DNA of 64,000 bases from an uncultured Gammaproteobacteria bacterium. GTDB lineage: Bacteria; Patescibacteriota; Patescibacteriia; UBA9934. Numbering within the stretch: the stretch's first letter is position 1; every line of letters starts with the position of its first letter. Below the pieces are notes generated by a model, which was not told where the DNA came from, made no database searches, and worked only from the letters and a program-made list of their open reading frames with translations. The stretch spans positions 371,061 through 435,060 of the forward strand of contig CAZKGL010000001.1 in assembly GCA_964552565.1 (NCBI GenBank). The letters run 5' to 3'. Below, in pieces: positions 42,288 to 60,146 of this stretch. Both the position numbers and the translations under genes were made by a program.

Positions 42288-42332
42288 ATGCTTAGGGGAC
42301 GACGTGAGAGCTGCCGTGCAAAAATACGACGG

Positions 42333-42557: not shown

Positions 42558-42707
42558 ACTTATTCTGATGCCCTATTGAGCGTGCCCATACGAGATCTAG
42601 TTTACCAGCCGAGGCCCCTTACGGGTAGTCGTCAAACAACAAAACCCCAGCGTTTCCGCTGAGGAATTGTTGGCTCGGCGGCACGGTCTCGAACTCACTT
42701 TACGACA

Positions 42708-43295: not shown

Positions 43296-43510
43296 GACTT
43301 CATGGTTACGCTACTCAGGCTATTTGGAAGATTTGTTTTTAGGGGTATTTACAGCTTGCTTTGCAATATCAGTTCGACAAATCCCACGTTTAGCGCACGC
43401 ATCCTCACATTCCTGCGCATACTGCGCCTCAAGATACTGAAAGCCGCATTGCTCGCAGGTAAAAAGTGTCTTGTCGTCTTTCTCGACCGTTTTGACCATA
43501 GAGATGGCGA

Positions 43511-43960
43511 TTAGTTTCGAAGCGCTTCTCGTTCTCTGAGAAAGGCCATTTGCGCGTCTTGTAAATGCATAACCGGACGACGTTCTTTGAGATACGCGAC
43601 CGCTTCGTCGGCTGTCTTACCTTGCTCAGCGACAAGATAGGCGGCGACAAGCACAGGCGCTCTTCCATGTCCGTTTTTGCAATGGATGAAGCACGGGATA
43701 TTCTTCCCTGCAAAGAAGCGCAACGCTGCAACGCCGAGATCGGCTTTCTCGTGTGACATAGCAGCATGGTCTTCGGTTGGAAGCCAAAGGAAAAAGTCGA
43801 CGCCGTACGGTTGGTCGATCCGCTCCTTCTCAAGGCTGATGGCAGCGCGCACTCCTCGAGCGATTAATGTATCGTCGAAGTGCGTGACGCAACAGGCATT
43901 CTGACCAATGAAAATCAGTGGGGTTATTTCCGAGTAATCAAAAGATTCGTGAACATGCAT
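43511..43960 (-). CDS. Dual-specificity (Cys-based) protein phosphatase
   Basis: CX5R P-loop HCKNGHGRAP. 149 aa. Last gene of a 4-gene operon. Confidence 0.8.
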   Translation of the reverse strand: MHVHESFDYSEITPLIFIGQNACCVTHFDDTLIARGVRAAISLEKERIDQPYGVDFFLWLPTEDHAAMSHEKADLGVAALRFFAGKNIPCFIHCKNGHGRAPVLVAAYLVAEQGKTADEAVAYLKERRPVMHLQDAQMAFLREREALRN

Positions 43961-43968
43961 AACGTAGT

Positions 43969-44223
43969 TTATGAAGCAATCTTCGCTACTAGCTCTCCTC
44001 GTTGATGCAGGGCTACCACATCATCGTAACCTCCCACGAATTCGTCGCCAATAAAAATCATCGGCACCGTTCTCCAGTTGTATTTTTCGCTCAAAGCCTC
44101 CGCCTCTGCGGCATCTGCAGCAAGGTTCTTTTCCTCAAATGGCACCTTGAGCGAAGTAAAAAGTTGTTTTGCAAGCATGCAATATGCACATCCTGGCGAA
44201 GTGTAAATTGTTACTTGTTTCAT
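43969..44223 (-). CDS. Glutaredoxin
   Basis: 84 aa with a CAYC active site and a TVP...GGYDD glutathione-binding pattern. Its ATG overlaps the upstream TGA. Confidence 0.85.
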   Translation of the reverse strand: MKQVTIYTSPGCAYCMLAKQLFTSLKVPFEEKNLAADAAEAEALSEKYNWRTVPMIFIGDEFVGGYDDVVALHQRGELVAKIAS

Positions 44224-45611: not shown

Positions 45612-45615
45612 ACCA

Positions 45616-45780
45616 CTACATTGCCGCGTGATCGTGCTGTACGCCTTCTGCGCACTTCTGGCAGGCCGCAGGAGCGGGGGCACTTTCCGCACCAGCACAC
45701 ATTGGACACATTTCAGCTTCGTTCTCTGGCTTTTGCGGTGCCGGAACCGCTCCGCCGCAGGCTGTACAAACTTTTCCCAT
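45616..45780 (-). CDS. Small Cys-rich protein (three CxxC pairs)
   Basis: MGKVCTACGG...CPMCAG...CQKCAEG. First gene of the operon; ends 4 nt before the reductase start. Confidence 0.4.
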   Translation of the reverse strand: MGKVCTACGGAVPAPQKPENEAEMCPMCAGAESAPAPAACQKCAEGVQHDHAAM

Positions 45781-45893
45781 AGAAAAGAAATAAAGAATCA
45801 ACAACGACAGTATATCGCTTTGCAAGAAATACGCTTGTAGCACAGGCTACAAAACATTGGCTCCGCTGTGGATGAGTGGTACTCTCTCAGCAT

Positions 45894-46556
45894 ATGGATC
45901 GTGTCTGGTACATCAAGAATTTCAATCTCTTCGCTGGTATTCCCAAGGAGGAAATCATGCGCATTGCTGCCTCCGCCAACGATGAGCGACATAACAGTCG
46001 TGCGCTGTTGTATACGCCGCACGACCAGGAAACACGGCTCTTTCTGGTAAAGGAGGGTGAGGTATCGCTGTACCACGTCAAGGATGGGAAGCGCTTTGTT
46101 TTTGACGTCATGGGTCCGGGGACATTGTTTGGCAATGTTGGTATGCAGGAAGGTTCACTTTCTCATTTTGCAGAAGCCGCCGAAGGCACCCGCATCTGCA
46201 CGTTTTCTTCGGCTGACTTTCAGCAGATTATTTCGGCATATCCCGTGGTCATGATGCGGGCGTTTTCGTCACTTGCACATCGACTGGAAGATTACGAAAC
46301 GAAACTCGGAGAGACGCTGTCGGACGCGAAAGAAAAGATTTTGCACGAAATTGAGCGATATGAACAAAAGCGCACACCAAAATTTCTTGAGTGGCTTTCG
46401 GGTGAGGCGACGAAGCGTCAACTTACGCACGAGCATCTCGCAAAATTAACCGGACTTAATCGAGTGACGGTTACGCGGGCAATTCATGATCTTCAGGCCG
46501 AGGGAGAGATTGACGTCGACGAGCACGGAAAAATTGTTATCCACAATAGTTTGTAG
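45894..46556 (+). CDS. Crp/Fnr-family transcriptional regulator
   Basis: cNMP-binding beta-roll followed by a C-terminal HTH (LTHEHLAKLTGLNRVTVTRAIHDLQ). No Fnr-type Cys cluster. Divergent from the Grx operon. Confidence 0.8.
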   Translation: MDRVWYIKNFNLFAGIPKEEIMRIAASANDERHNSRALLYTPHDQETRLFLVKEGEVSLYHVKDGKRFVFDVMGPGTLFGNVGMQEGSLSHFAEAAEGTRICTFSSADFQQIISAYPVVMMRAFSSLAHRLEDYETKLGETLSDAKEKILHEIERYEQKRTPKFLEWLSGEATKRQLTHEHLAKLTGLNRVTVTRAIHDLQAEGEIDVDEHGKIVIHNSL

Positions 46557-46603
46557 TATTTGTTACCGACATATATATGAGCATATCGCTATGATGTGCC
46601 CAT

Positions 46604-47086
46604 ATGAAAAATACTCTTTTTGCGATCGGAGGAATCATTGTCCTTATTGGGCTAGGATACGCAGTCTTTTCACGTCCGTCTGCTACAGACGTACCGCAAC
46701 CGGCTACGACGTCTGGCGTTGAAGCGTCGCCCACTGCGCCAACGGGCGAACAGGTCGTCTATGTAGCCGGGGCGTATCAGGATTTTTCGCAGACCGCGTA
46801 TGACTCCGCGCTTGCTGACGGCAAAACCGTTATTCTTGATTTTCACGCAGACTGGTGCCCAACGTGCCAAGTGAATGAGCCGATTATCAAGTCGGTATTT
46901 TCGACGAATACCGATACCAACATCGTCGGATTCAAAGTGAACTACGATACAGAGATCGGACTGAAGAAGGCGTTTAACATTCAGAGTCAGTCCACAATCA
47001 TTAAGACAGTAAAGGACGAGGCCGCAGAACAACTTGGCCCAGGTCCAGTAACAGCCGAAAGTTTCAGCGCATTTATCCAGTCCTAG
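46604..47086 (+). CDS. Membrane-anchored thioredoxin (TlpA/ResA-like)
   Basis: Signal anchor plus WCPTC. Confidence 0.8.
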   Translation: MKNTLFAIGGIIVLIGLGYAVFSRPSATDVPQPATTSGVEASPTAPTGEQVVYVAGAYQDFSQTAYDSALADGKTVILDFHADWCPTCQVNEPIIKSVFSTNTDTNIVGFKVNYDTEIGLKKAFNIQSQSTIIKTVKDEAAEQLGPGPVTAESFSAFIQS

Positions 47087-47090
47087 TAGT

Positions 47091-47795
47091 ATGGGGATGT
47101 TTTTATTGGCGCTTGTCGCCGGTGCTATCACCGTTACGTCACCGTGTATCATCCCCATTCTTCCGATTATTCTTGGGTCGGTACTGAAGGATCATAAGTG
47201 GTATCCCGTGTACCTCGTGCTCGGGATGTCGACGACGTTCACGGTGCTCGGCATCCTGTTTGGTGCCTTTGGTAGTGCACTTCCGATTGATCGCGTTTTC
47301 CTGAATCAACTCGCCATCTGGCTTATCGGCCTCATGGGAATTGTTCTCCTCGTAAAACCACTTGGCGATCTGTTCTCGCGTGGCACATCTATGCTCACGT
47401 CGTGGCTTGGCTCGTATGGTCCGAAAGCAAACCAGCTCGGACAGCCGGGTGAGGCCTTTGCGCTCGGATCGCTCCTTGGCATCGTCTGGGCACCGTGCGC
47501 CGGACCGATCCTCGGGTCAATCATTTTGCTCGCGTCGGGAACCGGAAGTGTCGTAAAGGCCGGACTACTGCTCTTCACGTACTCAATTGGCGCAGGGATC
47601 CCCATGCTCCTCATTGCCTACGGCGGGAAACGAGCAGTAGCGGGTAAACAGTTCATCCAAGAACAATCCGGCAGATTGAAAATGGCATTCGGTGTCGTCT
47701 TGCTTATCTCGGCACTCCTCATGGCAACGGGGGTGTTTCGCGAGCTGGAATCGCTCATCGTGCCGTATGTTCCCACGTGGAGCACGCAACTCTAA
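47091..47795 (+). CDS. ccdA: Cytochrome c biogenesis protein CcdA / DsbD-beta-domain electron transporter
   Basis: Six TM helices with the two conserved Cys (TSPCIIPILP; WAPCAGPILG). Confidence 0.85.
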   Translation: MGMFLLALVAGAITVTSPCIIPILPIILGSVLKDHKWYPVYLVLGMSTTFTVLGILFGAFGSALPIDRVFLNQLAIWLIGLMGIVLLVKPLGDLFSRGTSMLTSWLGSYGPKANQLGQPGEAFALGSLLGIVWAPCAGPILGSIILLASGTGSVVKAGLLLFTYSIGAGIPMLLIAYGGKRAVAGKQFIQEQSGRLKMAFGVVLLISALLMATGVFRELESLIVPYVPTWSTQL

Positions 47796-47816
47796 CATTT
47801 GAATGTCTATCACCCT

Positions 47817-48074
47817 ATGTCGCTACTCGAATTCTATGGCGCTGAATGCCCACATTGCATGGCGATGATGCCGCTCATTGAACGGTTGAAAAAAGAAGGC
47901 TTTGCCATTGAACAGTTTGAAACCTGGCATAACGAGGAAAACGCCAACAAGTTGAAGGAATACGACAAAGGTTTCTGCGGCGGCGTGCCGTTCTTCATAA
48001 ACACCGAAAGCGGAAAATGGATCTGCGGATCTGAATCCTATGAAGCGCTCCGAGCTTGGGCAGAAGGAAAATAG
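47817..48074 (+). CDS. Thioredoxin-fold protein with a CPHC motif
   Basis: The GAECPHC motif. Short, ~85 aa. Confidence 0.6.
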   Translation: MSLLEFYGAECPHCMAMMPLIERLKKEGFAIEQFETWHNEENANKLKEYDKGFCGGVPFFINTESGKWICGSESYEALRAWAEGK

Positions 48075-48441
48075 CAGCGCTAGGGAAATTCTTCGCATAA
48101 CGGGCATTCCCATTTTGCTTGCATCCCTGTGCTGCCTGAGTCCGGTTATCCTTGTGCTTTTAGGACTCACGACAACGACGTTTGCCGCTTCATTGTCCGA
48201 CACCCTTTACGGACAATATCGCTGGGTGTTCCGACTCGTGGGCTTCGTCGCACTTGCCGTATCGATTATCTGGCATCTGCGAAAGCGAAGGAAGATTTGC
48301 ACATTGGATCAGGCGAAGCGCCAGCGACACAAAATTGTTAACCTCATACTGCTCTCCGTTATCACCGCTATTCTTGGATATGTTTTCTGGCTCTACGTGG
48401 TCGTGGAATATATCGGCAAACTTCTCAATATTTGGAACTAA
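48040..48441 (+). CDS. Small membrane protein with vicinal Cys in TM1 (MerT/MerF-like)
   Basis: ILLASLCCLSPVILVLLG resembles the MerT CC helix. The start overlaps the previous gene by 35 nt. Confidence 0.4.
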   Translation: MKRSELGQKENSSAREILRITGIPILLASLCCLSPVILVLLGLTTTTFAASLSDTLYGQYRWVFRLVGFVALAVSIIWHLRKRRKICTLDQAKRQRHKIVNLILLSVITAILGYVFWLYVVVEYIGKLLNIWN

Positions 48442-48458
48442 TATAACCCCTTCAATCT

Positions 48459-49175
48459 ATGACAGAAAATACAACGCCGCCCGCTAGCTTCTTCAGTGGA
48501 AATCCTAAGATGATATTCGTTTTTGGTCTCGTGGCAGGCATCGCACTCACGTCCTTGGCCGGAGATCTGTTCGCGAATACTGGATCTGCAACCGGTACAG
48601 ACACCGCCGTCGTGAATGCGAACAATACCGGGCCATCTGCTGCGGCCTCCGCAAAAACGCTTGCCGCAGTAACGGAGGACGACCACGTACGAGGCGATCT
48701 TGAAAAAGCAAAGGTCGTGCTTATCGAGTACTCGGATTACGAGTGCCCTTTTTGCGGTAGGCACCATCCCACTATGCTCGATGTAGCAGAGCAATACGGC
48801 GACGATGTCGCTTGGGTGTATCGCCATTTTCCGCTCACGTCCATTCATCCGCAAGCAATGCCAGCAGCGCTCGCCGCCGAGTGTGCGAACGAACAAGGAA
48901 AGTTTTGGGAATATACGGATGCGCTCTTTGAAAACCAGAGCGATCTCAGCTCTTCATTTTATACCGAACTTGCTGGTGACCTTGGCATGAATACGTCAAA
49001 ATTCAGCGACTGCGTGGAAAGCGAGAAATATGCGGCGAGAGTAAAGGCCGATATCGCGTCAGGACAAGCCGCTGGTGCCACGGGCACGCCAGCAACATTC
49101 GTGAATGGCACGTTGGTGTCTGGCGCTGTACCGCTTTCGACATTCACAGGCCTTATAGACGCGGCACTCAAATAA
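48459..49175 (+). CDS. DsbA/BdbD-like thiol-disulfide oxidoreductase
   Basis: TM anchor, CPFC active site and the DSBA-fold cis-Pro region. Confidence 0.8.
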   Translation: MTENTTPPASFFSGNPKMIFVFGLVAGIALTSLAGDLFANTGSATGTDTAVVNANNTGPSAAASAKTLAAVTEDDHVRGDLEKAKVVLIEYSDYECPFCGRHHPTMLDVAEQYGDDVAWVYRHFPLTSIHPQAMPAALAAECANEQGKFWEYTDALFENQSDLSSSFYTELAGDLGMNTSKFSDCVESEKYAARVKADIASGQAAGATGTPATFVNGTLVSGAVPLSTFTGLIDAALK

Positions 49176-49257
49176 ACGAAAAATCGTTGCCGTGGTAGAA
49201 TTCACTCAAAGGTTCCTGACTTTTCAAAAATAATTAACTCATCACCTCACGAAAAAT

Positions 49258-49623
49258 ATGCAAATACTTTTCACCGTCGGTCACATCGTTCTCGGTCTGT
49301 TCTTCCTCATGATGGGCATGATGCACTTCATGAAGATGCGTGACATGACCGCGTATGCCAACATGAAGGGATTGCCAATGCCGTCGCTGTCCGTCGCGGT
49401 AACTGGAATGGTTCTTGCTCTTGGCGGCGCAGGAGTAATTTTTCAAGTCGCGCTCCCTTGGGCATACGGAGCACTGGTCGTATTCCTCGTATCAGCGGCA
49501 TTCCTCATGCATAACTTCTGGGCTGCCAAGGATGCACAGTCAAAGATGAACGACATGGTGAACTTCCAGAAAAATCTCGCCCTTGCCGCCGCCCTCTTGA
49601 TGCTCATCACGCTTCAAGCGTAA
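49258..49623 (+). CDS. DoxX-family membrane protein (island copy)
   Basis: 121 aa. Its C-terminus NFQKNLALAAALLMLITLQA is nearly identical to that of the core DoxX at 36350-36730. Confidence 0.8.
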   Translation: MQILFTVGHIVLGLFFLMMGMMHFMKMRDMTAYANMKGLPMPSLSVAVTGMVLALGGAGVIFQVALPWAYGALVVFLVSAAFLMHNFWAAKDAQSKMNDMVNFQKNLALAAALLMLITLQA

Positions 49624-49632
49624 TTCAATAGT

Positions 49633-50040
49633 GTGAGCAACCTCGTTTTTATTTATCAGGCAAACTCTGGCATTCTTGCGAATATACCGGGAGCCATCGC
49701 GAAAGCGTTTGGCGGAAAGAGCGTGTGTTCGCTGTGCAACATCACGAACGGCCCCTTTCGTGAAAAACCTGAATGGGAAACGTTCGTCGCGTCACTGCAA
49801 GAAAAGCCCGAGATCTATCACGCTAACGAAATACCGATTGACATTGCGTCATTCCTAAAAAAGAACGAGCACCCCATTCCCGTTGTCCTTGAGCGAAATG
49901 GATTTGAATTTACGGTCGCCATGTCTTCCGACGACCTCGATGCATGTCAGGCGGATCCCACCTGCCTCGCCAAGAAACTTACATCCTATACACGCACCTC
50001 GTGTAGCAATGGGGTGTGTTCGCTGAAACAGCCGAGTTGA
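49633..50040 (+). CDS. Hypothetical CxxC protein (possible thioredoxin-fold)
   Basis: GTG start and a CSLC motif. 135 aa. Confidence 0.4.
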   Translation: MSNLVFIYQANSGILANIPGAIAKAFGGKSVCSLCNITNGPFREKPEWETFVASLQEKPEIYHANEIPIDIASFLKKNEHPIPVVLERNGFEFTVAMSSDDLDACQADPTCLAKKLTSYTRTSCSNGVCSLKQPS

Positions 50041-50242
50041 GCTCAGAAAATATGATAGGAAGAATATTAGAAGTTTCCGGTGAGCTTTGCATCGGTTATC
50101 TCGCCACACGAGTGCACAGCCGCGTCGTGAAGGAACATCGCATTGATGCTGCTGTTCTTCGTGAAATGAAAATGGAAAAACATGTAGGAACGGTCGGGAT
50201 GGCACTTATCCTTGTTGGATTTATTTTAGAATCACAAGGAAT

Positions 50243-51592
50243 ATGATTTTACAAAATTGGTGGTACACAACCTTATTGGACGCATCGGTGCGCCACCAGC
50301 CGCCTTTGCGTGGTGCGCTCAAGTGCGACGTTGCGGTTATCGGCGGCGGCATGGCAGGACTCCACGCGGCGCTCCAGCTGAGCCGGATGGGTAAAAAAGT
50401 AATCCTTCTCGAACGAAACATTTGTGGCGGAAGTTCCACAGGAAAAAGCGCAGGGTTTCTTACGCCAGATAGCGAGCTCGAACTCAGCCAACTTGTCAGA
50501 AGATACGGCGTAGACGGTGCAAAAACTGTCTGGAATATGCCCGTGCAAGGCGTCAAACTTATCAAGCAGACGATCAACGATTTTAATATTGCGTGCGATT
50601 TTCGCAAACAAGATAGTCTATTCGTCGGTATTGGTAAGAGTGGCGCCGAGGACGTCGCGAGTGAGGCAAAATCAAGAAAGAGATTGGGATTTGCCTCCAC
50701 AAAGTACAACAAAGACGAGCTCAAAAAGGTGAACGCAGGGCTTGGCTACGAGGCGGGTATCAGATACGACGATACCTATTCCATAAACCCGCTGCTCTAC
50801 GCGCAGGGTTTGAAGCAAGCGTTAATGGACAGCGGCGTACAGATTTTTGAAAGCACCGAGGTGGTGCGCATTGAAGACGGGGCTGCGATTACCCATCTTG
50901 GATCCGTCATGGCGGATAATTTTATCGTTTGCATCGACAAAATGAAGTCGGAATTCAGTTCCGTCGCGAAGCAGACCTATCATGCTCAAACATTTCTTTC
51001 CATTAGCGAACCGCTAGACGACAACGATATTGCAGCAATATTCCCGGATGGCGAAGTGCAGTGTTGGGATTCACGACTTGTCTACAGCTATTATCGACTG
51101 ACACCCGATAAGCGGCTGTTGCTCGGCGGCGGGAGCGCGCTAACGACTTTTTCTCCTAACGATATAAATTCCCCGGCCATCATCAATCAGGTGATCGCGG
51201 ACTTCAAAAAAAGGTTTCCAAAGCTGGAACACGTCGCATTTGTTCAGTACTGGCCTGGGCGCATCGATACCACGAAGGACATCATGCCAATCATCGATTG
51301 GTTTGACGCGCCGAACGTTCAGTATGTTTTGGGCTGTGTCGGTTTGCCGTGGGCAAGTTTTTGCGGAAAGTATGCCGCAGAGCGTCTGTATGAACCACGC
51401 ATCTGTCAAAAGTACTGCATGTATCTCGGTGCTCATCGCTCATTTTTCATCCCGCCATGGCTTCAGAGTATCGTTGGTAAAATGATCAGTTTTTCTCTCA
51501 ACAATGCGTACGCCAAATACTTCGAGAAGGATAGGCCTCAAATGAGCCAGATCATGCATGCCCACAAAGGCGAGCTTCCTTCCCATCGATAA
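50243..51592 (+). CDS. FAD-dependent oxidoreductase (DAO family)
   Basis: N-terminal VAVIGGGMAGLHAALQL Rossmann motif. 449 aa. Confidence 0.8.
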   Translation: MILQNWWYTTLLDASVRHQPPLRGALKCDVAVIGGGMAGLHAALQLSRMGKKVILLERNICGGSSTGKSAGFLTPDSELELSQLVRRYGVDGAKTVWNMPVQGVKLIKQTINDFNIACDFRKQDSLFVGIGKSGAEDVASEAKSRKRLGFASTKYNKDELKKVNAGLGYEAGIRYDDTYSINPLLYAQGLKQALMDSGVQIFESTEVVRIEDGAAITHLGSVMADNFIVCIDKMKSEFSSVAKQTYHAQTFLSISEPLDDNDIAAIFPDGEVQCWDSRLVYSYYRLTPDKRLLLGGGSALTTFSPNDINSPAIINQVIADFKKRFPKLEHVAFVQYWPGRIDTTKDIMPIIDWFDAPNVQYVLGCVGLPWASFCGKYAAERLYEPRICQKYCMYLGAHRSFFIPPWLQSIVGKMISFSLNNAYAKYFEKDRPQMSQIMHAHKGELPSHR

Positions 51593-51595
51593 TAG

Positions 51596-51967
51596 CTAGA
51601 CGATAATTTTCAATTCGAGTTCTATCGTATCCTCTGCGAGAACATGCTCTTTCTTACGTATGCCAGATTTGAGTGGGAGCACATAGCTTCCTAACTTCGA
51701 GTCTGGAAAAATTGACGTCTTCCAGAGTGTTTTCCCGAGCGTCATTTCAACACGAATCGATCCCCATCCTTTTTTCAGTGGCGAAAACCGCGTTTTGATC
51801 TCGCGCGATATCTTTTTTGGCAGAGTAACAAAATGCCATCCGGCCATGCCGGGATACAACCATACTTTCGCTCGAAACGAATAATTTGTTTTCATAGACC
51901 CGGTTGTTTGAGAAAAATCCGACGGTTTTGCGTCCTGGGTGGTTCCGCTTTCTGGATCGAATGCCAA
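51596..51967 (-). CDS. DUF1905-like small protein
   Basis: AKVWLYPGMAGWHFVTLP...GWGSIRV pattern; family recalled from memory. Confidence 0.45.
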   Translation of the reverse strand: MAFDPESGTTQDAKPSDFSQTTGSMKTNYSFRAKVWLYPGMAGWHFVTLPKKISREIKTRFSPLKKGWGSIRVEMTLGKTLWKTSIFPDSKLGSYVLPLKSGIRKKEHVLAEDTIELELKIIV

Positions 51968-52150
51968 GAGTCGCTATTTGCTCAAGCTTTAAACAAAAAA
52001 TCGCCATTTTTCAATGACGACTTTTTGACAAGGCATGTGGGTCACCTCACACGCCTTCTCATGGCTCCGGGGGTGGTCGGGTATTCGAACCTCTATCGAA
52101 CAAGCAAAAAACAGGGACGAATTCGCAATCGTGCGAACTTGGTAGTGTCG

Positions 52151-55100
52151 CTACTGCAACTCGCCACCCGCCTTGAAGGATCTAATGTCTGCAGCCACGC
52201 GGCGCAGGTGTACGGGCAGTAACCGCATCCGAATCGCGAGAAGTGATACAGCGATCTCGATCGCCTTATTCGCTTGCGGATGCCTACCAATGTACCGAAG
52301 AAGGCTATGCAGTATTCCTCGCTCCCTAATGCCAAGACGCTTGTCCGTATAGATATACATTATCAAATCGCCAAGTATCGTCCCGATCGGCTGGACGGAG
52401 GTCTCCTTCTTCACCAACTCATTCATCAATAGCTCAACATTTTGGTCAAGCAGATTGAAGTTCGCAACTTCGAGATAGCGAACAATCATTGCGGTGTCAA
52501 TCGTTACATACGAATATCCGCACTTCAACAATTCCATTCTCCCGGCGTCATACTCCTCCTCAGACACCAGATTATGTTTACGCGCATTTCGAAGAAGTTC
52601 CTGACTTGTTGCAATGTCGAGACCCCCCAATGTTTTTATTGCATCACGGCCGAGGTACGAATCGTCACACACTACAGGTAGCCCTCTCTGTGAAGCAATT
52701 ACCATAGTCGTGCCCGATGATCCGTACTGCTCCTCAAACTGCTTCCTATCAGGAGAAACTGGACGTGCGTAGCCGACTCGTGTACAGGTCTCAAAGAAAG
52801 CTTGCACCTTTGTCAGAAGCTGCAGACTTTTCTCGTACGCCTCGGCGCTGACATCATTCATCATGACTGAGCCGTCGGCGCTGCCCTGTAGAAAAGATTG
52901 CCCTTTCTTAGAAAGCTTCGTGTACTCCTCGATTAGAGAGGAGAGCTGATCGCAAGTAAACTGATCAACATACACTTGCGTAAATGCCTTCTTTATCAAA
53001 TCCAAACGATCGAGGCGCGCCAATGTCAGAGCGGCACTCATGTCTACGATCACCTCTTTTTCCTTAAAAAGGATATTCTCACTTTCCGCAGCCTCTTGCG
53101 TATTTCCGAGGAAGGCATAAACCGGGAAGTCTTTCGCGGTTATCACATCGGACCACACCTCGAAATACTTCTTGGAGATGAGAGTTGAGATCTGATTCAA
53201 GGATAGGCGCTTGGCCTTATACTCCGCGATGACTTTATCGATCGCCTTGGCCCTTGCTGAGACCACCTCACCGATTTTCTTCATTCCATCTTGATCGGCT
53301 GAAAACTTCATGATCGCCTCTTGTCCCGGGGCGCGATTCTCGAAATTTTCCATTATGTCCTGATAGTACCTGACGTGCTTATCCTGAACAGCACCTTCCT
53401 GATCACTTACATGGTGAAAGACAGAGATGTACGCCAACTGAATCTCAGGGTTAGTGAAGTTTCTATCCAAAGCACTGAAGGCTGTTTCAAGTGCTTCGGC
53501 ATATTCGCCATTCAAGACAAGAAGGTTCGCAACTTGCATGAGTTGCTCCGCTTCGCTCGCCGAGTGCAACGCCTTCTTGATGTAAGGTGAATAATCTGCG
53601 ATAGACCCCGAAAGTCTAAATCTGCACTCAAGGAAGCCTATAACATCACCGAAAACGAAGTGATCCTCATCTATTAACTTTTTGTATTTCTCTGCTGCGG
53701 TCTCAAGGTCTCCAAGTACATGGGTGAAGTTCGCCGAAACCCGGAGAAGAGTGTCGGATTGAAGCGCCTTTTCGCTAGCCAAAACCATCAGAGCTTGCAA
53801 CTGTTCATACTTCTTTGCGTTGAATAGAGCAATTGCATATCTTTCAAAATTTTCTGCCGACGGATCTCCCTCGATAGCCAAGGCTAAAATTTCTGCGGCC
53901 TTCTCAAAATCTCCTATCTTCAAGAGAAAGGTTGAGTAATCATCGAGAATTATTTGATGAATTGGATTTGCCTCTACGGCCGCGTCCATCGCACGCTCGA
54001 AGTATTCTCCTGAAAGTTCGAGCTGATTTTGGTGCGCATGAAATATGGCAACCGATCTAAACGCCAAAGGATTGTCCGGGCATTCGGCGAGCAACTCATC
54101 TCTAACCTTTAGAGCCTTATCGGTCTCTTGGAGATCCAAATGGCCTAACATCAACAATCGCATCGTTTCAATATAAACCTCATCTCGATCGTCGCTCCTA
54201 TTCCCAGACAACAGTTCGACTGTCTTGCCCGGCTTCTTGCTGAAGAGGTACGCGGCCGCCAAATCCCTCCTCAAGTGATCTGGTAACGTGGTAATTTTTG
54301 AATACGCCTCTAACGCTTCGATCACGTATTCGTAACGATGGGAGATAAGACCCGCTCTCGACTTATTCACCAACGCCTCTATATTTTCGGCATCAAGTGA
54401 AAAGGCCCGATTAGCATATTCGATGCAGTCGTCATATTGTTTAAGAACCAAGTTGGCGGCCGATAGGTTGGTATAGAGGGGTGCCTCAAACTGTTTTGGC
54501 GCTTGCCCCTCAAACAACTTTACAGCCTCGGTCAAAGCCTTTTTCGCTTCTTCAAAATCCTTACAGATTGCATCCGGGATAATCGCGCCTTGTAATCTTC
54601 CTTCAAGATCCCTCGAGTGAAGCAGTAAAATTTCTTGAGCGAAAAACAATTTATACCAAACCTCCTTATCATCGCTTTCCTTGAGTTTTTTATATGCATC
54701 AGCTGCGCCCTTGTGGTCACGCAACTTACTCGCCTTCAGCGCGAAAATAAAGTCTTTGGTTGCTTGATTTTCAATGTCAGCAATGTCCCGATCAACTGCA
54801 TCGATGTCATTCAAGTCAAGATGGCAACGCGCGCGAATAGACAAGGCATGATCTCTATCCTGTAGATCTCTCGCTAGTACCATGTTAATCATTCCGAGAG
54901 CAGTTCCCGGATCCTTGGCGGCCAAGAATGCCTGTGCGTGGTTTGCGCCCGCCTTCTCATTTTCCGAATCAAGTGCGATTGCTTTTTCAAATAACAATTT
55001 AGCTTTATCCGTTTCGCCAAGCCGCAATTCGCATAGTCCAAGATTGTTATGAATCTTGGACATAGTCTTCTTGCCGACTCCACCGGCAGTCGGAAGATCC

Positions 55101-55771
55101 GCAAGAATATCGTACCCATCGCGGCGGGCGCCCGTGTAATCTCCCTCATCTATTTTCTTGACCATCCGCTTGTTTCTTGCATCGAATAGACCCGAAAGTT
55201 CCCCACTCTCTATTACAGAAGATTGCAAAGAGGCGACAGCTGCCTGAAGCGCCGCAAGCTGTTGCTGTGTTGTTTCAAAGATATCCGGATGACGTTCCTT
55301 TACTGTCGGATGCTGATCTGCCAGTTGCCTCAAATGCTCAGCGGAGTACACGAGGTATTTGCAGTTGTTCTCTCGTGTCAGCTCTGCAAGAACATCGTGC
55401 TGCTCCTTACGCAGTGCGGCAGGGGTAACAAACACCCAAGTATCAAACGGGTACATCCCACGTTGTTCGATCGCCTTACTGAAATCAGAACGAATTTTCT
55501 TGTTGTAAGCATCGTTCGACGACCGGGTACTCAAAAGCGGAGTATAAATTGCGAAAAAAATCTTGGCTGATGTTGTGTACCCATCCATCCCATCATCGCC
55601 ACCCCTGTCGTCAATAACAAGAAAATCTTGATGCTCCGCGAGCAAGAGATCTTTGACTAACGCTTCAAATACTTTGTTGTTGTCAATGTGCTCGATTTTC
55701 TTCGTGTACTTATATGCGTCACTATCCGGCATATTCTTATCGTAAGGAAGAACCCTGCCGACATGAAACAC
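52151..55771 (-). CDS. 1206-aa TPR-repeat array protein with an N-terminal Mrr/restriction-endonuclease-like domain
   Basis: More than 900 aa of TPR-like helical repeats. The N-terminus FEALVKDLLLAEHQDFLVIDDRGGDDGMDGY resembles the Mrr_cat signature. Low GC. Confidence 0.75.
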   Translation of the reverse strand: MFHVGRVLPYDKNMPDSDAYKYTKKIEHIDNNKVFEALVKDLLLAEHQDFLVIDDRGGDDGMDGYTTSAKIFFAIYTPLLSTRSSNDAYNKKIRSDFSKAIEQRGMYPFDTWVFVTPAALRKEQHDVLAELTRENNCKYLVYSAEHLRQLADQHPTVKERHPDIFETTQQQLAALQAAVASLQSSVIESGELSGLFDARNKRMVKKIDEGDYTGARRDGYDILADLPTAGGVGKKTMSKIHNNLGLCELRLGETDKAKLLFEKAIALDSENEKAGANHAQAFLAAKDPGTALGMINMVLARDLQDRDHALSIRARCHLDLNDIDAVDRDIADIENQATKDFIFALKASKLRDHKGAADAYKKLKESDDKEVWYKLFFAQEILLLHSRDLEGRLQGAIIPDAICKDFEEAKKALTEAVKLFEGQAPKQFEAPLYTNLSAANLVLKQYDDCIEYANRAFSLDAENIEALVNKSRAGLISHRYEYVIEALEAYSKITTLPDHLRRDLAAAYLFSKKPGKTVELLSGNRSDDRDEVYIETMRLLMLGHLDLQETDKALKVRDELLAECPDNPLAFRSVAIFHAHQNQLELSGEYFERAMDAAVEANPIHQIILDDYSTFLLKIGDFEKAAEILALAIEGDPSAENFERYAIALFNAKKYEQLQALMVLASEKALQSDTLLRVSANFTHVLGDLETAAEKYKKLIDEDHFVFGDVIGFLECRFRLSGSIADYSPYIKKALHSASEAEQLMQVANLLVLNGEYAEALETAFSALDRNFTNPEIQLAYISVFHHVSDQEGAVQDKHVRYYQDIMENFENRAPGQEAIMKFSADQDGMKKIGEVVSARAKAIDKVIAEYKAKRLSLNQISTLISKKYFEVWSDVITAKDFPVYAFLGNTQEAAESENILFKEKEVIVDMSAALTLARLDRLDLIKKAFTQVYVDQFTCDQLSSLIEEYTKLSKKGQSFLQGSADGSVMMNDVSAEAYEKSLQLLTKVQAFFETCTRVGYARPVSPDRKQFEEQYGSSGTTMVIASQRGLPVVCDDSYLGRDAIKTLGGLDIATSQELLRNARKHNLVSEEEYDAGRMELLKCGYSYVTIDTAMIVRYLEVANFNLLDQNVELLMNELVKKETSVQPIGTILGDLIMYIYTDKRLGIRERGILHSLLRYIGRHPQANKAIEIAVSLLAIRMRLLPVHLRRVAADIRSFKAGGELQ

Positions 55772-55802
55772 CTTTTATGCCTAACTCCGCAACCAAGAGC
55801 TG

Positions 55803-56177
55803 TTACTGCTTGACGATTGCAATCCCCGTCGCCCTATCCCAATAGAATCCAAAGACAAGCATTGCTAAGAACCCGATACCTGTAACAGCAGACAATGCGA
55901 TGATTTCGCGTAGGACGAGACGAAGTAGTGTCGGTCTCGCAAGCGTCTTGCGATCTACTGTGCGCAATTTAAAGAGCCTCTGACCGGGCGTTGCGCCTGA
56001 GTAAGCTGCGAGAGCTAAGCCTGCTAACAAAGCGACCAGAAAAGGCCACATCGCTCGGGACAACGCTTCGTGAAGCAGCGCATCAAAAAGGGCGACCGCC
56101 GTGCCGATGACAAAAAAGTCAATCATGAGAGCCGTGCCGCGCTTAAAATGACCATATTCAAAAATTACTTCGGACAT
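55803..56177 (-). CDS. RDD-family membrane protein
   Basis: 124 aa with 3 TM helices and an RDD-like pattern. Confidence 0.55.
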   Translation of the reverse strand: MSEVIFEYGHFKRGTALMIDFFVIGTAVALFDALLHEALSRAMWPFLVALLAGLALAAYSGATPGQRLFKLRTVDRKTLARPTLLRLVLREIIALSAVTGIGFLAMLVFGFYWDRATGIAIVKQ

Positions 56178-56178
56178 A

Positions 56179-56391
56179 CTATTTTGCCCAGCTTCCGTAA
56201 TGCTCGCAGGCTTCGGCGGCCGTTAGCTTGTTCTCAAGAGCATAGCGGTACTGCGTTTCGCCCATGCAGGCTAGAAAATCACCGCGTGCTTGATTGGGCA
56301 TCACTATAAGACGCCAAACGGCCGTCCCGGTGAGTAATACAATGCACGCGATAGCAACCTTGGTTGCTGTTTGCCTTGATATTTCCTGCAC
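56179..56391 (-). CDS. Small membrane-anchored hypothetical protein
   Basis: 70 aa with an N-terminal TM segment and a Cys pair. Confidence 0.35.
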   Translation of the reverse strand: MQEISRQTATKVAIACIVLLTGTAVWRLIVMPNQARGDFLACMGETQYRYALENKLTAAEACEHYGSWAK

Positions 56392-56955
56392 AAAGCTCGT
56401 TATTTAGAAATAAACAAAAGGACACCCCTGAGGTGTCTAGACCCAAACAGCAGGGCTACTGCCGCTTGTTTTATCAGGGATGCCCGTTACGGCGCACCAA
56501 TAGCCCTAATAAAACTGCCGACAGTTTCCTGTTGGTCAGCGCTGTTGTTTGGATCTAGACAAGATAAGTGTGCCTTAGCAGAGAAAAAGCTGCAAGAAAC
56601 ATACAGATGTGGAAAAGATGCCTTGCCTGATAGGCGTAAGGCGAGCAGAATAGAACCACAACGACTCGGGCCTTGCCCGGGTCAACAGACTGCAAAAGTC
56701 AGCCTTACCCTGAAATCACTTTAGGACGGCCGGACATAGCAGATTGGGAATTTTTCCCGTCTTCTATTTGTCCGGTCGTCCTTTTTGTATGAGTCAGCGC
56801 CTGCTCAAAAAGTTCATCGAGATCTACCACCGCCAATACGGGGTCGAACTCACAGAAGCAGATGCTCGCTCAAAGGCTGCTGATTTTCTCAGTCTCTACC
56901 GCGCAATTGGCGCACCTCAAAACTGAGGGTTTATCCAAGAAACCTGAGAATAAGT

Positions 56956-57204
56956 ATGAAAATTGCACCGAGCTTTTATACATCAAACTTTTACCTCGCA
57001 GCATTCATGCTTGCGAGTGGTTTTACGCTTCAGGGCTACGAACGATCGGATGACGGGAAGGTCACCTTCGTTATCGAAGACGGCGAGAACCGAGAGGAGG
57101 CCGTCGACAGTTTCCACTGCGGAAACCCGCAAGTCGATGCAAGACGTTTTATTGCGGCGATTAGGCAGCTCAAGAGCGGCATTTACGACGGTGCTGCTAC
57201 GTAG
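56956..57204 (+). CDS. DUF5659-like small protein of mobile elements
   Basis: The YTSNFYLAAFMLASGF motif is recalled from memory as typical of this family, which often sits near integrases. Confidence 0.4.
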   Translation: MKIAPSFYTSNFYLAAFMLASGFTLQGYERSDDGKVTFVIEDGENREEAVDSFHCGNPQVDARRFIAAIRQLKSGIYDGAAT

Positions 57205-57224
57205 CTGCGAATTGAAGAGAGCAT

Positions 57225-57815
57225 ATGGATTCGGGTCAATTCATCAAAGTGCCTGTTTACATCGAAGCCGACAAGCGCCTGTCTCCCACGGACAAGGCTG
57301 TCTATATGGCACTTCGAAAACATAGGAACGAACGTTCCGGCGAAGAAGTGTTTCCTTCCCGGGAGCTAATCGGTAAAAGCGTTGGACGCGGTGTGACAAC
57401 GGTGTGGCGTTCACTCAAAAACCTAGCGAACTGTGGGCATATCGTTTGGAAAAGCGGAGCGCAAGGCAGGTCCAATCGCTACCAGTTCACCCATGAAACG
57501 GTAAGCAGTTCACCGGTGCAATCTAGTCATGTCGCCAATGAACCACTCAGCAGTTCATCCGCGAACCACGAATCAGAATCAGGAACCCAAAAACAAGAAT
57601 CAGATAACTCATCACTTTTCTTTCGAGGGGAACTCTGCCTGATCAATGAAGACGGAACCTCCGTTCAGGTTATCGGCAACGACGGCTTCCTCACGCCCTA
57701 CGACGGGAGAAGCGACTCAGACTTTCGATATCGAAACCTTACAGGACCCAAAGCCCTTCGTGTCGCCCTCCACGACTACCAGATGCAAGCATTTGGTTTC
57801 GCAAGAAATAGCTAA
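57225..57815 (+). CDS. Winged-helix/HTH protein (phage replication- or regulator-like)
   Basis: LSPTDKAVYMALRKH...FPSRELIGKSVGRGVTTVWRSLKNL fits the HTH_36 pattern. Confidence 0.5.
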   Translation: MDSGQFIKVPVYIEADKRLSPTDKAVYMALRKHRNERSGEEVFPSRELIGKSVGRGVTTVWRSLKNLANCGHIVWKSGAQGRSNRYQFTHETVSSSPVQSSHVANEPLSSSSANHESESGTQKQESDNSSLFFRGELCLINEDGTSVQVIGNDGFLTPYDGRSDSDFRYRNLTGPKALRVALHDYQMQAFGFARNS

Positions 57816-57895
57816 GACTAGCACCTTATTCAGTTATTCAAGTGATGGCGCGAGACCCGCTGTTGGGATAAAATCGAAGAAACTAGAATAAGCAT

Positions 57896-59515
57896 ATGCA
57901 ATCAGCCGTTGTCATTTACGCCCGCAAGTCGAGCGAACAAGAGGATCGTCAGATCTTGAGTATCGATTCTCAGATCGCCGAGCTTAAGCAACTTGCCCTG
58001 AAGTTTGAGGTAACCCCGAAGTACGTTATTAGCGAATCCTTCAGCGCAAAGGCTCCCGGTCGAGAAAAGTTCAACGAGATGGTTGCTCTTATTGAGGCTG
58101 GAAAAGTAGACACGATTTTTGCTTGGCATCCCGATCGTCTGTCTCGCAATGCAGTAGACGCTGCGTGGCTTATTCACCTTCTTGATACTGGTAAGCTCAA
58201 AGCAATCATCACGCCGAGCCAATCTTTCAAAAATACTCCGAACGATAAGTTTCTTTTCAACCTCCTCACCAGTCAGGCGAAGCTTGAAAACGACAACAAG
58301 AGTATCAACGTAAAACGAGGGTTGAAGACTAAAGTCGAGATGGGCTGCTACCCCGGTGTTGCTCCGCTTGGCTATCTGAACAACAAGTACAAGGAGAAGG
58401 GTAAGAAGGACGTTTATCTCGATGCTGAACGTGGCCCGATCCTCCGCAAGATCTTCGACCTAATTCTTGAAGGCATGCCTCCCATGCGAGCCTTGGAAAT
58501 CGCAAATGAAAAGCTTGACTTCCGCACCCCTCACGGAAATAAGCTCGCACGTACGACACTCTACCGTGTTCTCACGATGCCCTTTTATTACGGTGAGTTC
58601 GAATACCCGAAAGGTAGTGGCAAATGGTACAAGGGCAACCACGAACCCCTGATCACAGTTGAGGAATACGACCGAGTTCAAACTTTTCTTGGACGAGACG
58701 GTAGACCACGGGCGCGCCAGAGCCTCTATAACTTCCCCTACAAGGCGATGATGCGCTGCGGGGAGTGTGGCGCCGCTATTACCATTGAGCGCAAGGTAAA
58801 GCGTCAGAAGAATGGTAATGTCCACGAGTACGTCTATTATCACTGTACGAAGCGCATTAAAAGGGACTGCACGCAGAAATGCGTCGAGGCAAAAGAGATT
58901 GATGACCAGATCGCCGAGACCTTGGCTTCCGTGAAGATCCCTCAGGAGTTCCATGAATGGGCCATTGAGGCGTTACGCGAGGAAAATGAAGCCGAGACCT
59001 CGTCACGCGCGCAGACTATGAAACGCCAACGCTCCTCATATGACGAGACGGTTCGGATGATGGATGAGCTGCTCGATATGCGCCTCAAGAAACAGATCTC
59101 CGATGAGCAGTTCGCTGACAAGAAGGCATCCTTGGAACACGATAAAACGCGCTATAAGGAGCTTCTCAACGATACCGACCGTAGGATCGACTGGTGGATG
59201 AATGTCGCGGGGGAGGCCATGCAATTCCTTTGTGAAGCCCAACAGAAATTTATCGAAGGCGACGCAGACCGAAAGACCCGCATTCTGAACGCCCTTGGTT
59301 CGAACTTCACCCTTCTCGACGGAAAACTAGTCGTTTCTGTGAAGGAAACGCTTCTTTCGGTTACCGAGCAATATCACCAGATGAAACAGGCTGGAAAAAT
59401 GTTCGAACCTCTGAAATTTGGCTCTACAAAACAAAGAACCGACACCATTTCTGATGTCAGTTCCATGTGGCTCCGGGGGTGGGGTTCGAACCCACGACCA
59501 TCTCGTTACACTTGA
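57896..59515 (+). CDS. Large serine recombinase (integrase)
   Basis: Resolvase catalytic region YARKSSEQEDRQ...SIDSQ, a recombinase domain, a zinc ribbon CGECG...HCTKRIKRDC and a coiled coil. 539 aa. Confidence 0.9.
   Translation: MQSAVVIYARKSSEQEDRQILSIDSQIAELKQLALKFEVTPKYVISESFSAKAPGREKFNEMVALIEAGKVDTIFAWHPDRLSRNAVDAAWLIHLLDTGKLKAIITPSQSFKNTPNDKFLFNLLTSQAKLENDNKSINVKRGLKTKVEMGCYPGVAPLGYLNNKYKEKGKKDVYLDAERGPILRKIFDLILEGMPPMRALEIANEKLDFRTPHGNKLARTTLYRVLTMPFYYGEFEYPKGSGKWYKGNHEPLITVEEYDRVQTFLGRDGRPRARQSLYNFPYKAMMRCGECGAAITIERKVKRQKNGNVHEYVYYHCTKRIKRDCTQKCVEAKEIDDQIAETLASVKIPQEFHEWAIEALREENEAETSSRAQTMKRQRSSYDETVRMMDELLDMRLKKQISDEQFADKKASLEHDKTRYKELLNDTDRRIDWWMNVAGEAMQFLCEAQQKFIEGDADRKTRILNALGSNFTLLDGKLVVSVKETLLSVTEQYHQMKQAGKMFEPLKFGSTKQRTDTISDVSSMWLRGWGSNPRPSRYT
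59468..59510 (-). tRNA. tRNA 3' exon-like half (anticodon-stem 3' strand, variable loop, T-arm GTGGGTTCGAACCCCAC, acceptor CCCCGGA-G-CCA)
   Basis: The reverse complement reads tgtaacgagatggtcgtgggttcgaaccccacccccggagcca. It pairs with the 5' half at 60056-60087. Confidence 0.5.
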
Positions 59516-59703
59516 TCCATCGGTTTCCCGACAGCGTGGACTATATCTTCATCCGTCTCTTGTGAGCGAGGATGCAGGGCGCTTCCGGCTCTGAAGCCGT
59601 ACTCCCGTGAGGGATAGTCTCTGAACCTTCATCGCTTTTTCAAGCGACGCTTGGCTGCTGATTACCCTGCGTAAGCGAGGGCTTCCAGCAATTCACCCTG
59701 TGG

Positions 59704-59943
59704 TCATTCCGACGTCTCCGTCGGAAGCTGCGTTATGCCCGCATGCAATTCACGATGACAATTTGCGCAGATGAGAATGCATTCCGCAATCTCCTTCTCG
59801 ATCGCTGCCCACGATCTCGTATATCCACGCGCCGAGATGCCGAAAGATTTCTTCTTCGGATCTCGATGGTGGATATCGAGGGCTTACGGGCACCGATCAT
59901 ATCCGCAAATCTGACATCGTCCACCAAGCTTCGCGACTGCCAT
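59704..59943 (-). pseudogene. HNH endonuclease ORF with an in-frame TAA (between CQICGYDRCP and ALDIHHRDP...CANCHRELH)
   Basis: The hand-translated single frame contains complete HNH motifs. It is interrupted by TAA at 59884-59886. Confidence 0.6.
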
Positions 59944-60055
59944 TTCGCGGACCTTTCGTCGGCGATTGGCAACTGCTCGCTTGATGGCTTCTGCACGCTG
60001 GGCGTAGGTTCGCCGTTCTTTCATACCGCTAGTGTATCGAAGAAGGCGTGTCCAC

Positions 60056-60087
60056 AGCGAGCCGCTCTGCCACTGAGCTACCCCGGA
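60056..60087 (-). tRNA. tRNA 5' exon-like half (acceptor TCCGGGG, D-arm GCTCAGTGGCAGAGC, anticodon-stem 5' strand)
   Basis: Reverse complement tccggggtagctcagtggcagagcggctcgct. The acceptor is complementary to the 3' half lying 545 nt away. Confidence 0.5.
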
Positions 60088-60117
60088 AGGGTTGGCTTTG
60101 CCTCTTAAGGCTGCGAA

Positions 60118-60146
60118 AGATTACCACGGCATTCGAGGGATTTCAA
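60118..60146 (-). promoter_or_regulatory. Sigma70-like promoter TTGAAA-17-TAATCT, ~30 nt upstream of the tRNA 5' end
   Basis: Read on the minus strand as ttgaaatccctcgaatgccgtggtaatct. Confidence 0.45.

Follow-up and report, generated by a model that had tools for sequence, protein, structure and literature searches.

A predicted subgroup IA-like group I intron in a tRNA-Asn(GUU) gene of Candidatus Uhrbacteria

Bacterial tRNA genes and their group I introns

The classical group I introns of bacterial tRNA genes, found in tRNA-Leu(UAA) of cyanobacteria and in tRNA-Ile and tRNA-Arg of Azoarcus and Agrobacterium, belong to subgroup IC3, usually lack an ORF and lie at 34/35 or 36/37. In the scheme of Michel and Westhof, what sets subgroup IA apart is a pair of additional helices, P7.1 and P7.2, placed between P7 and the P3 3' strand. 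Phage introns of subgroup IA may carry an HNH gene in a peripheral loop, as with I-HmuI of SPO1 and I-TevIII of RB3; these interrupt protein-coding genes, and their ORFs sit in other loops than the one described below. Closer to the present case, group I introns at 35/36 of tRNA-Asn are known from Patescibacteria, some with PF01844 HNH genes; 25 of 28 introns at this position were classed as IA, and homologues were spliced in vitro and sequenced, with the junction at 35/36 (Nakagawa et al., 2026; PMC13011429). They correspond to type Asn.4Ug, the 35/36 tRNA-Asn(GUU) intron class of Williams (2020; bioRxiv 10.1101/2020.01.27.920355).

We analysed a 64-kb stretch of DNA (the window) and read one of its loci, with a probability of about 0.9, as a tRNA-Asn(GUU) gene of Candidatus Uhrbacteria with a 545-nt subgroup IA group I intron between U35 and U36. 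It shares its phylum, tRNA, insertion point and IA-type core with the introns of Nakagawa et al. and Williams, and an HNH-like frame lies upstream of the guide, the place of the PF01844 HNH gene in four published cases (PMC13011429). Its exon sequence is absent from the 22 in Table S3 of that study, its HNH gene carries a nonsense codon, unlike that class, and it is also targeted by a serine-recombinase element, which PMC13011429 does not discuss. With the classical tRNA introns it has in common a group I intron of the self-splicing kind in the anticodon loop and a P1 built from anticodon-loop bases, but it is IA-like, with P7.1 and P7.2, and lies at 35/36, whereas they are IC3. With the phage introns it shares an IA-type core and an HNH-like gene in a peripheral loop, but at the DNA level similarity could be detected only in short stretches of the core; DNA searches of phage and plasmid collections likewise returned only short matches to the conserved core. 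Since the tRNA-Asn group I intron arrangement of this phylum was already described in 2020 and 2026, the window copy is another example rather than a new principle.

A split tRNA-Asn gene and its splice junction

By sequence reading, a 545-nt insert separates two tRNA halves on the minus strand (60087-60054 and 59508-59468). The 5' half starts at 60087 with TCCGGGG, followed by the D-arm; the 3' half contains the T-arm, the acceptor CCCCGGA, G73 and CCA, and ends at 59468. The acceptor strands are perfectly complementary across the insert (7/7 pairs), the exons together form a perfect cloverleaf, and a search of the window for the 28-nt string of T-arm and acceptor gives one occurrence, where chance would give 0. 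The features of the gene are as follows:

60054-60087, minus strand: tRNA-Asn exon 1, positions 1-35, ending C32 U33 G34 U35 (ARAGORN on the splice, comparison of 85 loci)
59509-60053, minus strand: group I intron, 545 nt, IA-like, between anticodon positions 35 and 36 (RF00028, borders in 85 loci, covariation)
59509, minus strand: terminal G of the intron (omega G); all 85 loci have this G next to UAA, and the two bases ahead of it vary
59468-59508, minus strand: tRNA-Asn exon 2, U36 to A76, CCA encoded, discriminator G73 (sequence reading, ARAGORN, comparison of 85 loci)

A preliminary description of this DNA had claimed a tRNA gene split by an insert of about 545 bp, and the complementary acceptors and group I intron score bear this out. 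Its two halves stand, but its borders were each 2 nt off (60056 instead of 60054, and 59510 instead of 59508).

The same split tRNA was found in 85 of the 91 loci bearing a homologous HNH ORF. Across these 85, the CUGU ending exon 1 and the G followed by UAA at the start of exon 2 are invariant, as is the loop CU-GUU-AA after splicing; the triplets preceding UAA include GUG, AUG, GCG, ACG and UUG. ARAGORN called the 60054/59508 splice product as tRNA-Asn(gtt), a cloverleaf with anticodon GUU, and the annotated full-length matches of the spliced sequence are tRNA-Asn genes from records of phages and E. coli. Bacterial tRNA-Asn typically has U1-A72 and G73, as here. The preliminary description had proposed a comparison with intron-less tRNA genes; the spliced product is identical to the intron-less tRNA-Asn of locus L092 at 66 of 75 positions (88%).

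The preliminary description had instead modelled a tRNA-Thr(UGU) with the loop CU-UGU-AA and the intron at 33/34, exon 1 ending at 60056 and exon 2 starting at 59510. Within the window sequence alone, this model does provide a U at -1 and a G at the intron end, its product is accepted by ARAGORN as tRNA-Thr(tgt), and the same call is frequent from software: ARAGORN and tFind make the same 2-nt mis-call, Thr(UGU) at 33/34, in the published introns (PMC13011429). However, the UG with which its exon 2 would start is CG or another dinucleotide in L023, L026, L032, L057, L088, L069, L070 and L086, and where it ends the intron, many homologues have A or C. Pairing of the conserved guide GCAG extends through U35, with U33 paired to an A; the exons match tRNA-Asn genes, which are the annotated full-length matches even when the Thr-type junction is the query; and the 35/36 junction was sequenced in spliced homologues (PMC13011429). 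We therefore consider a tRNA-Thr practically untenable. Because CUGU and G|UAA are invariant while the dinucleotide of the Thr model varies, the comparison places the splice at U35|U36, with tRNA-Asn(GUU) as the predicted product. The rule of a U at the 5' splice site and a terminal G on the intron, cited for the 33/34 site, does hold, but at U35 and G59509.

Such genes are easily overlooked. ARAGORN in default mode found no tRNA in the 64-kb window, and its intron option returned a tRNA-His with a long extra arm, which we rejected as a wrong call. Since default tRNA finders miss the gene and intron-aware finders tend toward tRNA-Thr, genomes of this phylum seem to be without tRNA-Asn and look less complete than they really are.

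We assign the host to Candidatus Uhrbacteria (Patescibacteria) from its AtpA, which matches a protein of Candidatus Uhrbacteria with 100% identity. This rules out a proteobacterial host with cross-phylum transfer, which had been suspected from the 62% G+C. The G+C content of the intron is 54%, compared with about 63% in the host.

Ribozyme core, internal guide and HNH frame

Rfam model RF00028 matched 59517-59798 with 78 bits (E = 4e-18), well above its gathering cut-off of 50 bits, in the group I scan that had been proposed with the preliminary description. The following elements, all on the minus strand, were placed in the window:

59519-59700: catalytic core, composed of P3 to P9 below
59700-59696 with 59579-59575: P3
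59690-59685 with 59661-59656: P4
59681-59665: P5
59655-59625: P6/P6a
59621-59615 with 59543-59538: P7
59614-59603: P7.1, hairpin; 4/4 pairs with changes on both sides
59599-59586: P7.2, hairpin; 5/5 pairs with changes on both sides
59573-59551: P8
59532-59519: P9
59707-59726: P2, hairpin UUCCGAC GGAGAC GUCGGAA; 5/7 pairs change on both sides in 22 sequences
59727-59731: internal guide GCAGC, the 3' strand of P1, pairing with exon 1 G31-U35 with a G.U wobble at U35 (conservation)
59704-60024: ORF of an HNH homing endonuclease, 106 codons and a stop, within the loop of P1 (ORF reading, Pfam, homologues)

Among the 22 aligned core sequences used for the covariation analysis, 88.8% of cells are paired, compared with 33-47% when the partners are slid. 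Changes on both sides occur at 38 pairs, and none of 500 shuffles reached the observed values. Such changes are found in P3, P5, P6a, P8 and P9, whereas P4, P6 and P7 show no change and have all their pairs formed. With no variation in P1, P4, P6 and P7, covariation speaks neither for nor against these helices, and P10 is weak. J6/7-P7, J8/7 and the guide agree base for base with the family consensus. The predicted helices P3-P9, together with P7.1 and P7.2, are thus supported by covariation, except for the invariant P4, P6 and P7, and the presence of P7.1 and P7.2 makes the intron IA-like. The preliminary description had counted an unfoldable P3-P9 core among the grounds for its refutation; all helices could be placed, the P3/P7 pseudoknot included. 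Its other suggestion, a tRNA disrupted by a small homing-endonuclease element, is unsupported because the ribozyme core is complete.

The guide lies in the string ACGCAGC, which is invariant in the 22 aligned core sequences and found at the same position in a wider set. In P1, four pairs are invariant and standard in all 22 sequences, and U35 (60054) pairs with G59731 as U.G, also in 22/22; a pair that never varies is compatible with the structure but does not prove it. In ORF-less relatives the corresponding segment reads CTGT-taaag-GCAGCC-P2 (Table S3 of PMC13011429). The guide put forward earlier, AGCGAGC, does exist as a 7-mer, but it is unconserved and would pair the splice-site U with an A. 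Two other candidates were discarded: GCAGCGA at 59808-59802 makes seven pairs with exon 1 but is unconserved in L001, L005 and the larger set, and a second apparent guide, about 57 nt past the CANCH-coding motif, is the 3' strand of P2.

Splicing could then proceed as follows. The whole split gene would be transcribed as a single precursor, in which G31 and the anticodon-loop bases C32-U35 pair with the guide GCAGC 322 nt downstream; in the P1 so formed, the splice-site pair is a G.U wobble. The catalytic core would be built by P2 to P9 together with P7.1 and P7.2. A free guanosine would attack after U35; the terminal G59509 would then take its place and the exons would be joined, giving the loop CU-GUU-AA. 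We infer that the window copy self-splices from the roughly 80% identity of its core to an intron spliced in vitro, although the introns tested (PMC13011429) were without an ORF and the 322-nt P1 loop might slow folding.

The P1 loop houses the 106-codon HNH gene, the end of which also serves as the guide and P2; P2 encodes the final residues of the HNH protein. The PF01844 score of the window ORF is 21.2 bits, marginally under the cut-off of 21.4; several relatives have a precomputed PF01844 match, and all family-invariant Cys, His and Asn residues of the motif CxxC...HH...N...CxxCH are present. We found 679 homologues, mostly of 106 aa, the best being 79% identical. The HNH endonuclease ORF of the preliminary description is present as an HNH-like frame, but it is not intact: an in-frame TAA at codon 47 (59886-59884) falls between the CxxC and HH motifs, ahead of the final TGA at 59706-59704. 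In 11 aligned close relatives this codon is Q, K, G, E, D or A, and related intron ORFs are intact in 67 of 77 cases. Since relatives have sense codons here, the window ORF reads as a pseudogene, with the caveat that the TAA could be a sequencing error. A nonsense change of the CAA/CAG-to-TAA type would have inactivated a gene that presumably once served homing, and for this reason the intron is probably no longer mobile.

Should the TAA be a sequencing error or be read through, the endonuclease would still be made and the intron would still be mobile. The rest of the frame is clean, and its 79% identity to intact relatives with every conserved Cys, His and Asn kept would agree with this. Nevertheless, the stop is present in the sequence as given, premature stops also occur in family members L024 and L058, so such decay does happen, and TAA is not known to be reassigned in the host's group. 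Continued production of the endonuclease thus seems unlikely to us, and we favour the pseudogene. The locus would then illustrate a stage in the life cycle of a homing intron, with the endonuclease gene in decay and the ribozyme still kept.

The premature stop shows that some decay has taken place, and the ribozyme might have died along with the endonuclease, leaving another tRNA-Asn gene to serve the cell. This appears highly improbable given that all core helices are intact, J6/7-P7, J8/7 and the guide equal the family consensus, and the exon cloverleaf is perfect; moreover, it is reported to be rare for one anticodon to have copies both with and without an intron (PMC13011429). A functional intron may instead persist because the cell needs its precise removal.

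One signal was noted upstream of the tRNA:

60118-60146, minus strand: promoter-like hexamers TTGAAA (60146-60141) and TAATCT (60123-60118) with a 17-nt spacer (sequence reading)

The distance from these to the 5' end of the tRNA, which lies downstream, is about 30 nt. The hexamers and spacer of the promoter proposed earlier are indeed there, but the hexamers agree with the consensus at no more than 8 of 12 positions, and a promoter scan left the pair below threshold, with no call. The region upstream of the tRNA shows no conservation in the homologues of alignment A1. A promoter role for the pair is plausible but unproven.

A serine recombinase element at the tRNA 3' end

Outside the intron's own parts, the 3' end of the gene adjoins a recombinase gene and is repeated elsewhere in the window:

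57896-59515, plus strand: gene of a 539-aa large serine recombinase, convergent with the tRNA (Pfam)
52062-52076, minus strand: 15 nt repeating the tRNA 3' end exactly, CCACCCCCGGAGCCA (the other copy at 59482-59468; blastn E = 0.005)
59425-59464, minus strand: terminator-like hairpin and T-run directly 3' of the tRNA, inside the recombinase coding region of the opposite strand

The domains Resolvase (PF00239), Recombinase (PF07508) and Zn_ribbon_recom (PF13408) all scored above their cut-offs, and over its final 16 codons the gene runs antisense to exon 2 and the intron end. The recombinase has roughly 7,800 homologues, and the recombinase/tRNA arrangement is also seen in other loci. The copy of CCACCCCCGGAGCCA is exact, against a chance expectation of 0.17 matches with up to two mismatches, and is preceded by a degenerate T-loop-like GGTTCGAA. 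It is likely the far attachment site, which would delimit an element of 7.4 kb, carrying the large serine recombinase and integrated at the tRNA-Asn 3' end. A far end near the G+C break at 42.3 kb was rejected, as no displaced tRNA 3' end occurs there and the repeat is at 52.06 kb. Viral contigs scanned with the recombinase gave no match.

Could the intron-bearing tRNA be cargo of this element instead of belonging to the host? Exon 2 is overlapped by the recombinase ORF, G+C is 54% in the intron but about 63% in the host, and the pairing of recombinase and intron-bearing tRNA recurs in another Uhrbacteria contig. Yet the repeat bounding the element takes in no more than the final 15 nt of the tRNA, most intron loci (e.g. 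L005) are without a recombinase, and homologous recombinases abut an intron-less tRNA-Asn and a tRNA-Gln, which leaves cargo a very slim chance compared with a host gene.

The tRNA-Asn gene may, at clearly less than even odds, host two unrelated selfish elements. The second would belong to a widespread clade of large serine recombinases integrating at tRNA (Asn, Gln) 3' ends, with the recombinase gene running antisense through the tRNA 3' half and ending at the anticodon, or inside the intron where one is present. This element is the part of the locus that may merit separate attention: should the clade prove undescribed, it would represent serine integrases of a branch that targets tRNA genes and in which integration alters the C-terminal tail. 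As for the terminator-like hairpin, an equivalent of different sequence also lies 3' of the tRNA in L001 and L092.

A split tRNA-Asn gene

Two tRNA halves lie on the minus strand, with acceptor strands that read as fully complementary, followed by a hairpin and T-run:

60087-60054, minus strand: tRNA exon 1, reading TCCGGGG-TA-GCTC-AGTGGCA-GAGC-G-GCTCG-CTGT
59508-59468, minus strand: tRNA exon 2, reading TAA-CGAGA-TGGTC-GTGGG-TTCGAAC-CCCAC-CCCCGGA-G-CCA
59464-59425, minus strand: hairpin and T-run 3' of the tRNA

A single copy of the 28-nt T-arm/acceptor string is present in the window, where chance predicts zero. ARAGORN in default mode reported no tRNA in the entire 64 kb window, and between the two halves Rfam's model for group I introns matched 59517-59798 with 78 bits (threshold 50). 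Together, the tRNA halves and the Rfam match show that the split tRNA and group I intron proposed in the preliminary description are real; judged from its sequence, the feature probably behaves like a self-splicing tRNA intron.

The gene had been modelled as Thr-like, spliced at 60056/59510. Two junctions satisfy the rule of a U before the intron and a G at its end: this one, which gives the loop CU-UGU-AA (Thr), and 60054/59508, which gives CU-GUU-AA (Asn). ARAGORN accepted both spliced products, and a single sequence is hence insufficient to choose between them. Searching with the intron ORF yielded 679 homologous proteins, mostly of 106 aa, and the genome collection encodes a relative in at least 587 places. 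Of 91 fetched loci, 85 had the ORF flanked by this split tRNA, as located by script. In all 85, exon 1 ends in CTGT, followed by a variable base (G, A, T or C), and exon 2 starts with TAA, preceded by an invariant G behind two variable bases (GTG, ATG, GCG, ACG, TTG). The Thr model requires TG before TAA and a G one step upstream, and since these positions vary, many loci contradict it. All loci compared are compatible with the Asn model.

Queries joined at the Thr junction also matched tRNA-Asn genes, both among annotated full-length matches in phage records and in all annotated E. coli matches listed. An intron-less tRNA-Asn, that of locus L092, is identical to the spliced window sequence at 66 of 75 positions. 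In these comparisons the exons behave as tRNA-Asn, and both the Thr identity and its junction were wrong.

The proposed promoter is a candidate. The TTGAAA and TAATCT hexamers do exist upstream of the tRNA with a 17-nt spacer, but they agree with the consensus at only 8 of 12 positions, a promoter scan did not call them, and they lie in a region without conservation among homologues. Just upstream of an intron-bearing tRNA-Asn in another Uhrbacterium (L001, 2880-2950), there are two copies, approximately 55 nt apart, of the 15-nt CGTTCCGAGGTAGCT, made up of two flanking bases and the tRNA's initial 13 nt.

Guide sequence, ribozyme core and HNH frame

59731-59727, minus strand: guide GCAGC
59726-59707, minus strand: P2 hairpin, directly after the guide, with both-side changes in many loci
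60024-59704, minus strand: HNH ORF of 106 residues, motifs CxxC, HH, N and CxxCH

Common to the aligned loci is ACGCAGC, with CUUCC (or a similar sequence) after it, located 38 nt past the start of the CANCH-coding motif. GCAG pairs with C32-U33-G34-U35, the splice-site pair being a G.U, and G31 pairs with the fifth guide base. Published ORF-less introns read CTGT-taaag-GCAGCC-hairpin (Nakagawa et al., 2026; PMC13011429), confirming the P1 and P2 assignment. The guide suggested earlier, AGCGAGC, was rejected, being unconserved in homologues and setting U33 against an A. A first alternative candidate (59808-59802) was likewise unconserved and discarded.

To assess the core, 22 sequences of the same core type were aligned with the ORF removed, and pairs were counted on a hand-drawn structure. 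Standard pairs filled 88.8% of cells, vs 33-47% after partners were shifted 1-3 columns; both-side changes were seen in 38 of 62 pairs, and none of 500 shuffles reached the observed pairing values. P2, P3, P5, P6a, P7.1, P7.2, P8 and P9 covary, and P1, P4, P6 and P7 are invariant. A P3-P9 structure can be placed in the window. P7.1 and P7.2 are two hairpins between P7 and the P3 3' strand, the mark of subgroup IA in the Michel-Westhof scheme.

The HNH ORF starts 30 nt downstream of the 5' splice site, and is thus located in the P1 loop. Roughly the final eight codons (TQLPTETSE) double as guide sequence and P2, explaining the strong conservation of this tail. The endonuclease frame described earlier is broken; codon 47 is TAA (59884-59886), a position that encodes Q, K, G, E, D or A in eleven aligned close relatives. 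The Pfam HNH model scored 21.2, just below its cut-off of 21.4. The frame is intact in 67 of 77 distinct ORF-bearing introns, with premature stops in at least three, at independent loci (the window, L024 and L058). From its sequence, the window's endonuclease gene is best read as recently inactivated. In the window and L058 the stops occupy neighbouring codons.

Two loci, L059 and L071, have short introns without the ORF at the same site (242 and 230 nt). In L059 (4001-4650, Candidatus Terrybacteria), a homologous free-standing HNH gene ends 10 nt upstream of the tRNA-Asn, whose 242-nt intron sits at 35/36. The arrangement may be a halfway state between an endonuclease gene beside the tRNA and one carried in the intron.

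A convergent serine recombinase

57896-59515, plus strand: large serine recombinase gene, 539 aa, convergent with the tRNA
L092, 10001-11644, and L093, 10001-11649: recombinase homologues ending antisense inside intron-less tRNA-Asn and tRNA-Gln, respectively

The recombinase ORF runs antisense through the tRNA terminator and, with its last 16 codons, through exon 2 and the final intron bases, stopping inside the intron. The recombinase alignment extends to the exon 2 edge in about ten intron loci. A 51%-identical homologue adjoins an intron-less tRNA-Asn, and a 48%-identical one a tRNA-Gln. A C-terminal [GD]SN[PLQRH] motif, the antisense reading of the tRNA T-loop, occurs in 51 of 120 homologues (P0241-P0360) vs 93 of 1,995 background stretches, which points to a clade of serine recombinases that target tRNA genes. 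The literature searched gave no description of such a clade.

An exact direct repeat of the tRNA's final 15 nt (59482-59468) lies at 52076-52062, and the two copies probably bound a 7.4-kb element (52062-59515) that is independent of the intron. Its cargo comprises the recombinase, an HTH_36 protein, an RDD-family protein and a 1,206-aa TPR protein with a PIN domain (TPR-GreAB-C-PIN system). Adjoining it is a stretch of 47-53% G+C (42300-52060) encoding a pyridine-nucleotide disulphide oxidoreductase, a Crp-type regulator, thioredoxin, DsbD and DsbA-like proteins, DoxX, a DAO oxidoreductase and a DUF1905 protein; neither a recombinase nor a tRNA fragment was found at its left edge.

Published introns and distribution

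A protein named Candidatus Uhrbacteria bacterium, encoded on an 838,942-bp contig, matches the window's AtpA at 100% identity, making the host a Patescibacterium despite a G+C of 62%.

This intron class is already published, and the window copy is a further example. The tRNA-Asn type appears in an earlier list (Williams, 2020; bioRxiv 10.1101/2020.01.27.920355). Nakagawa et al. (2026) assigned 25 of 28 introns at 35/36 to subgroup IA, found PF01844 HNH genes in four Asn introns, and noted that ARAGORN and tFind often mis-call such genes tRNA-Thr(UGU) 33/34 by a 2-nt shift. They also confirmed self-splicing in vitro by sequencing the junction; the window core, from guide to terminal G, shares approximately 80% identity with the intron spliced in that work. 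The window exon sequence does not occur in their Table S3, which lists 22 sequences.

Among complete genomes, endonuclease-bearing 35/36 introns were reported only in Patescibacteria (Nakagawa et al., 2026). Among our loci, HNH-bearing tRNA-Asn introns also occur under other labels (L057, L032, L047, L054, L056, L088 and others): in genomes labelled Pyrinomonadaceae, Blastocatellales and other Acidobacteriota, one of them a 5.5-Mb chromosome, and in bins that bear the labels Gammaproteobacteria, Omnitrophica, Methylomirabilota and Heliobacteriaceae. In eight loci (L030, L064, L066, L069, L073, L078, L082 and L085), the same HNH/guide/P2 module sits on a visibly different core (GGGAUAACGGUGAA...ACCGUGGGAAC), hinting at module exchange between introns.
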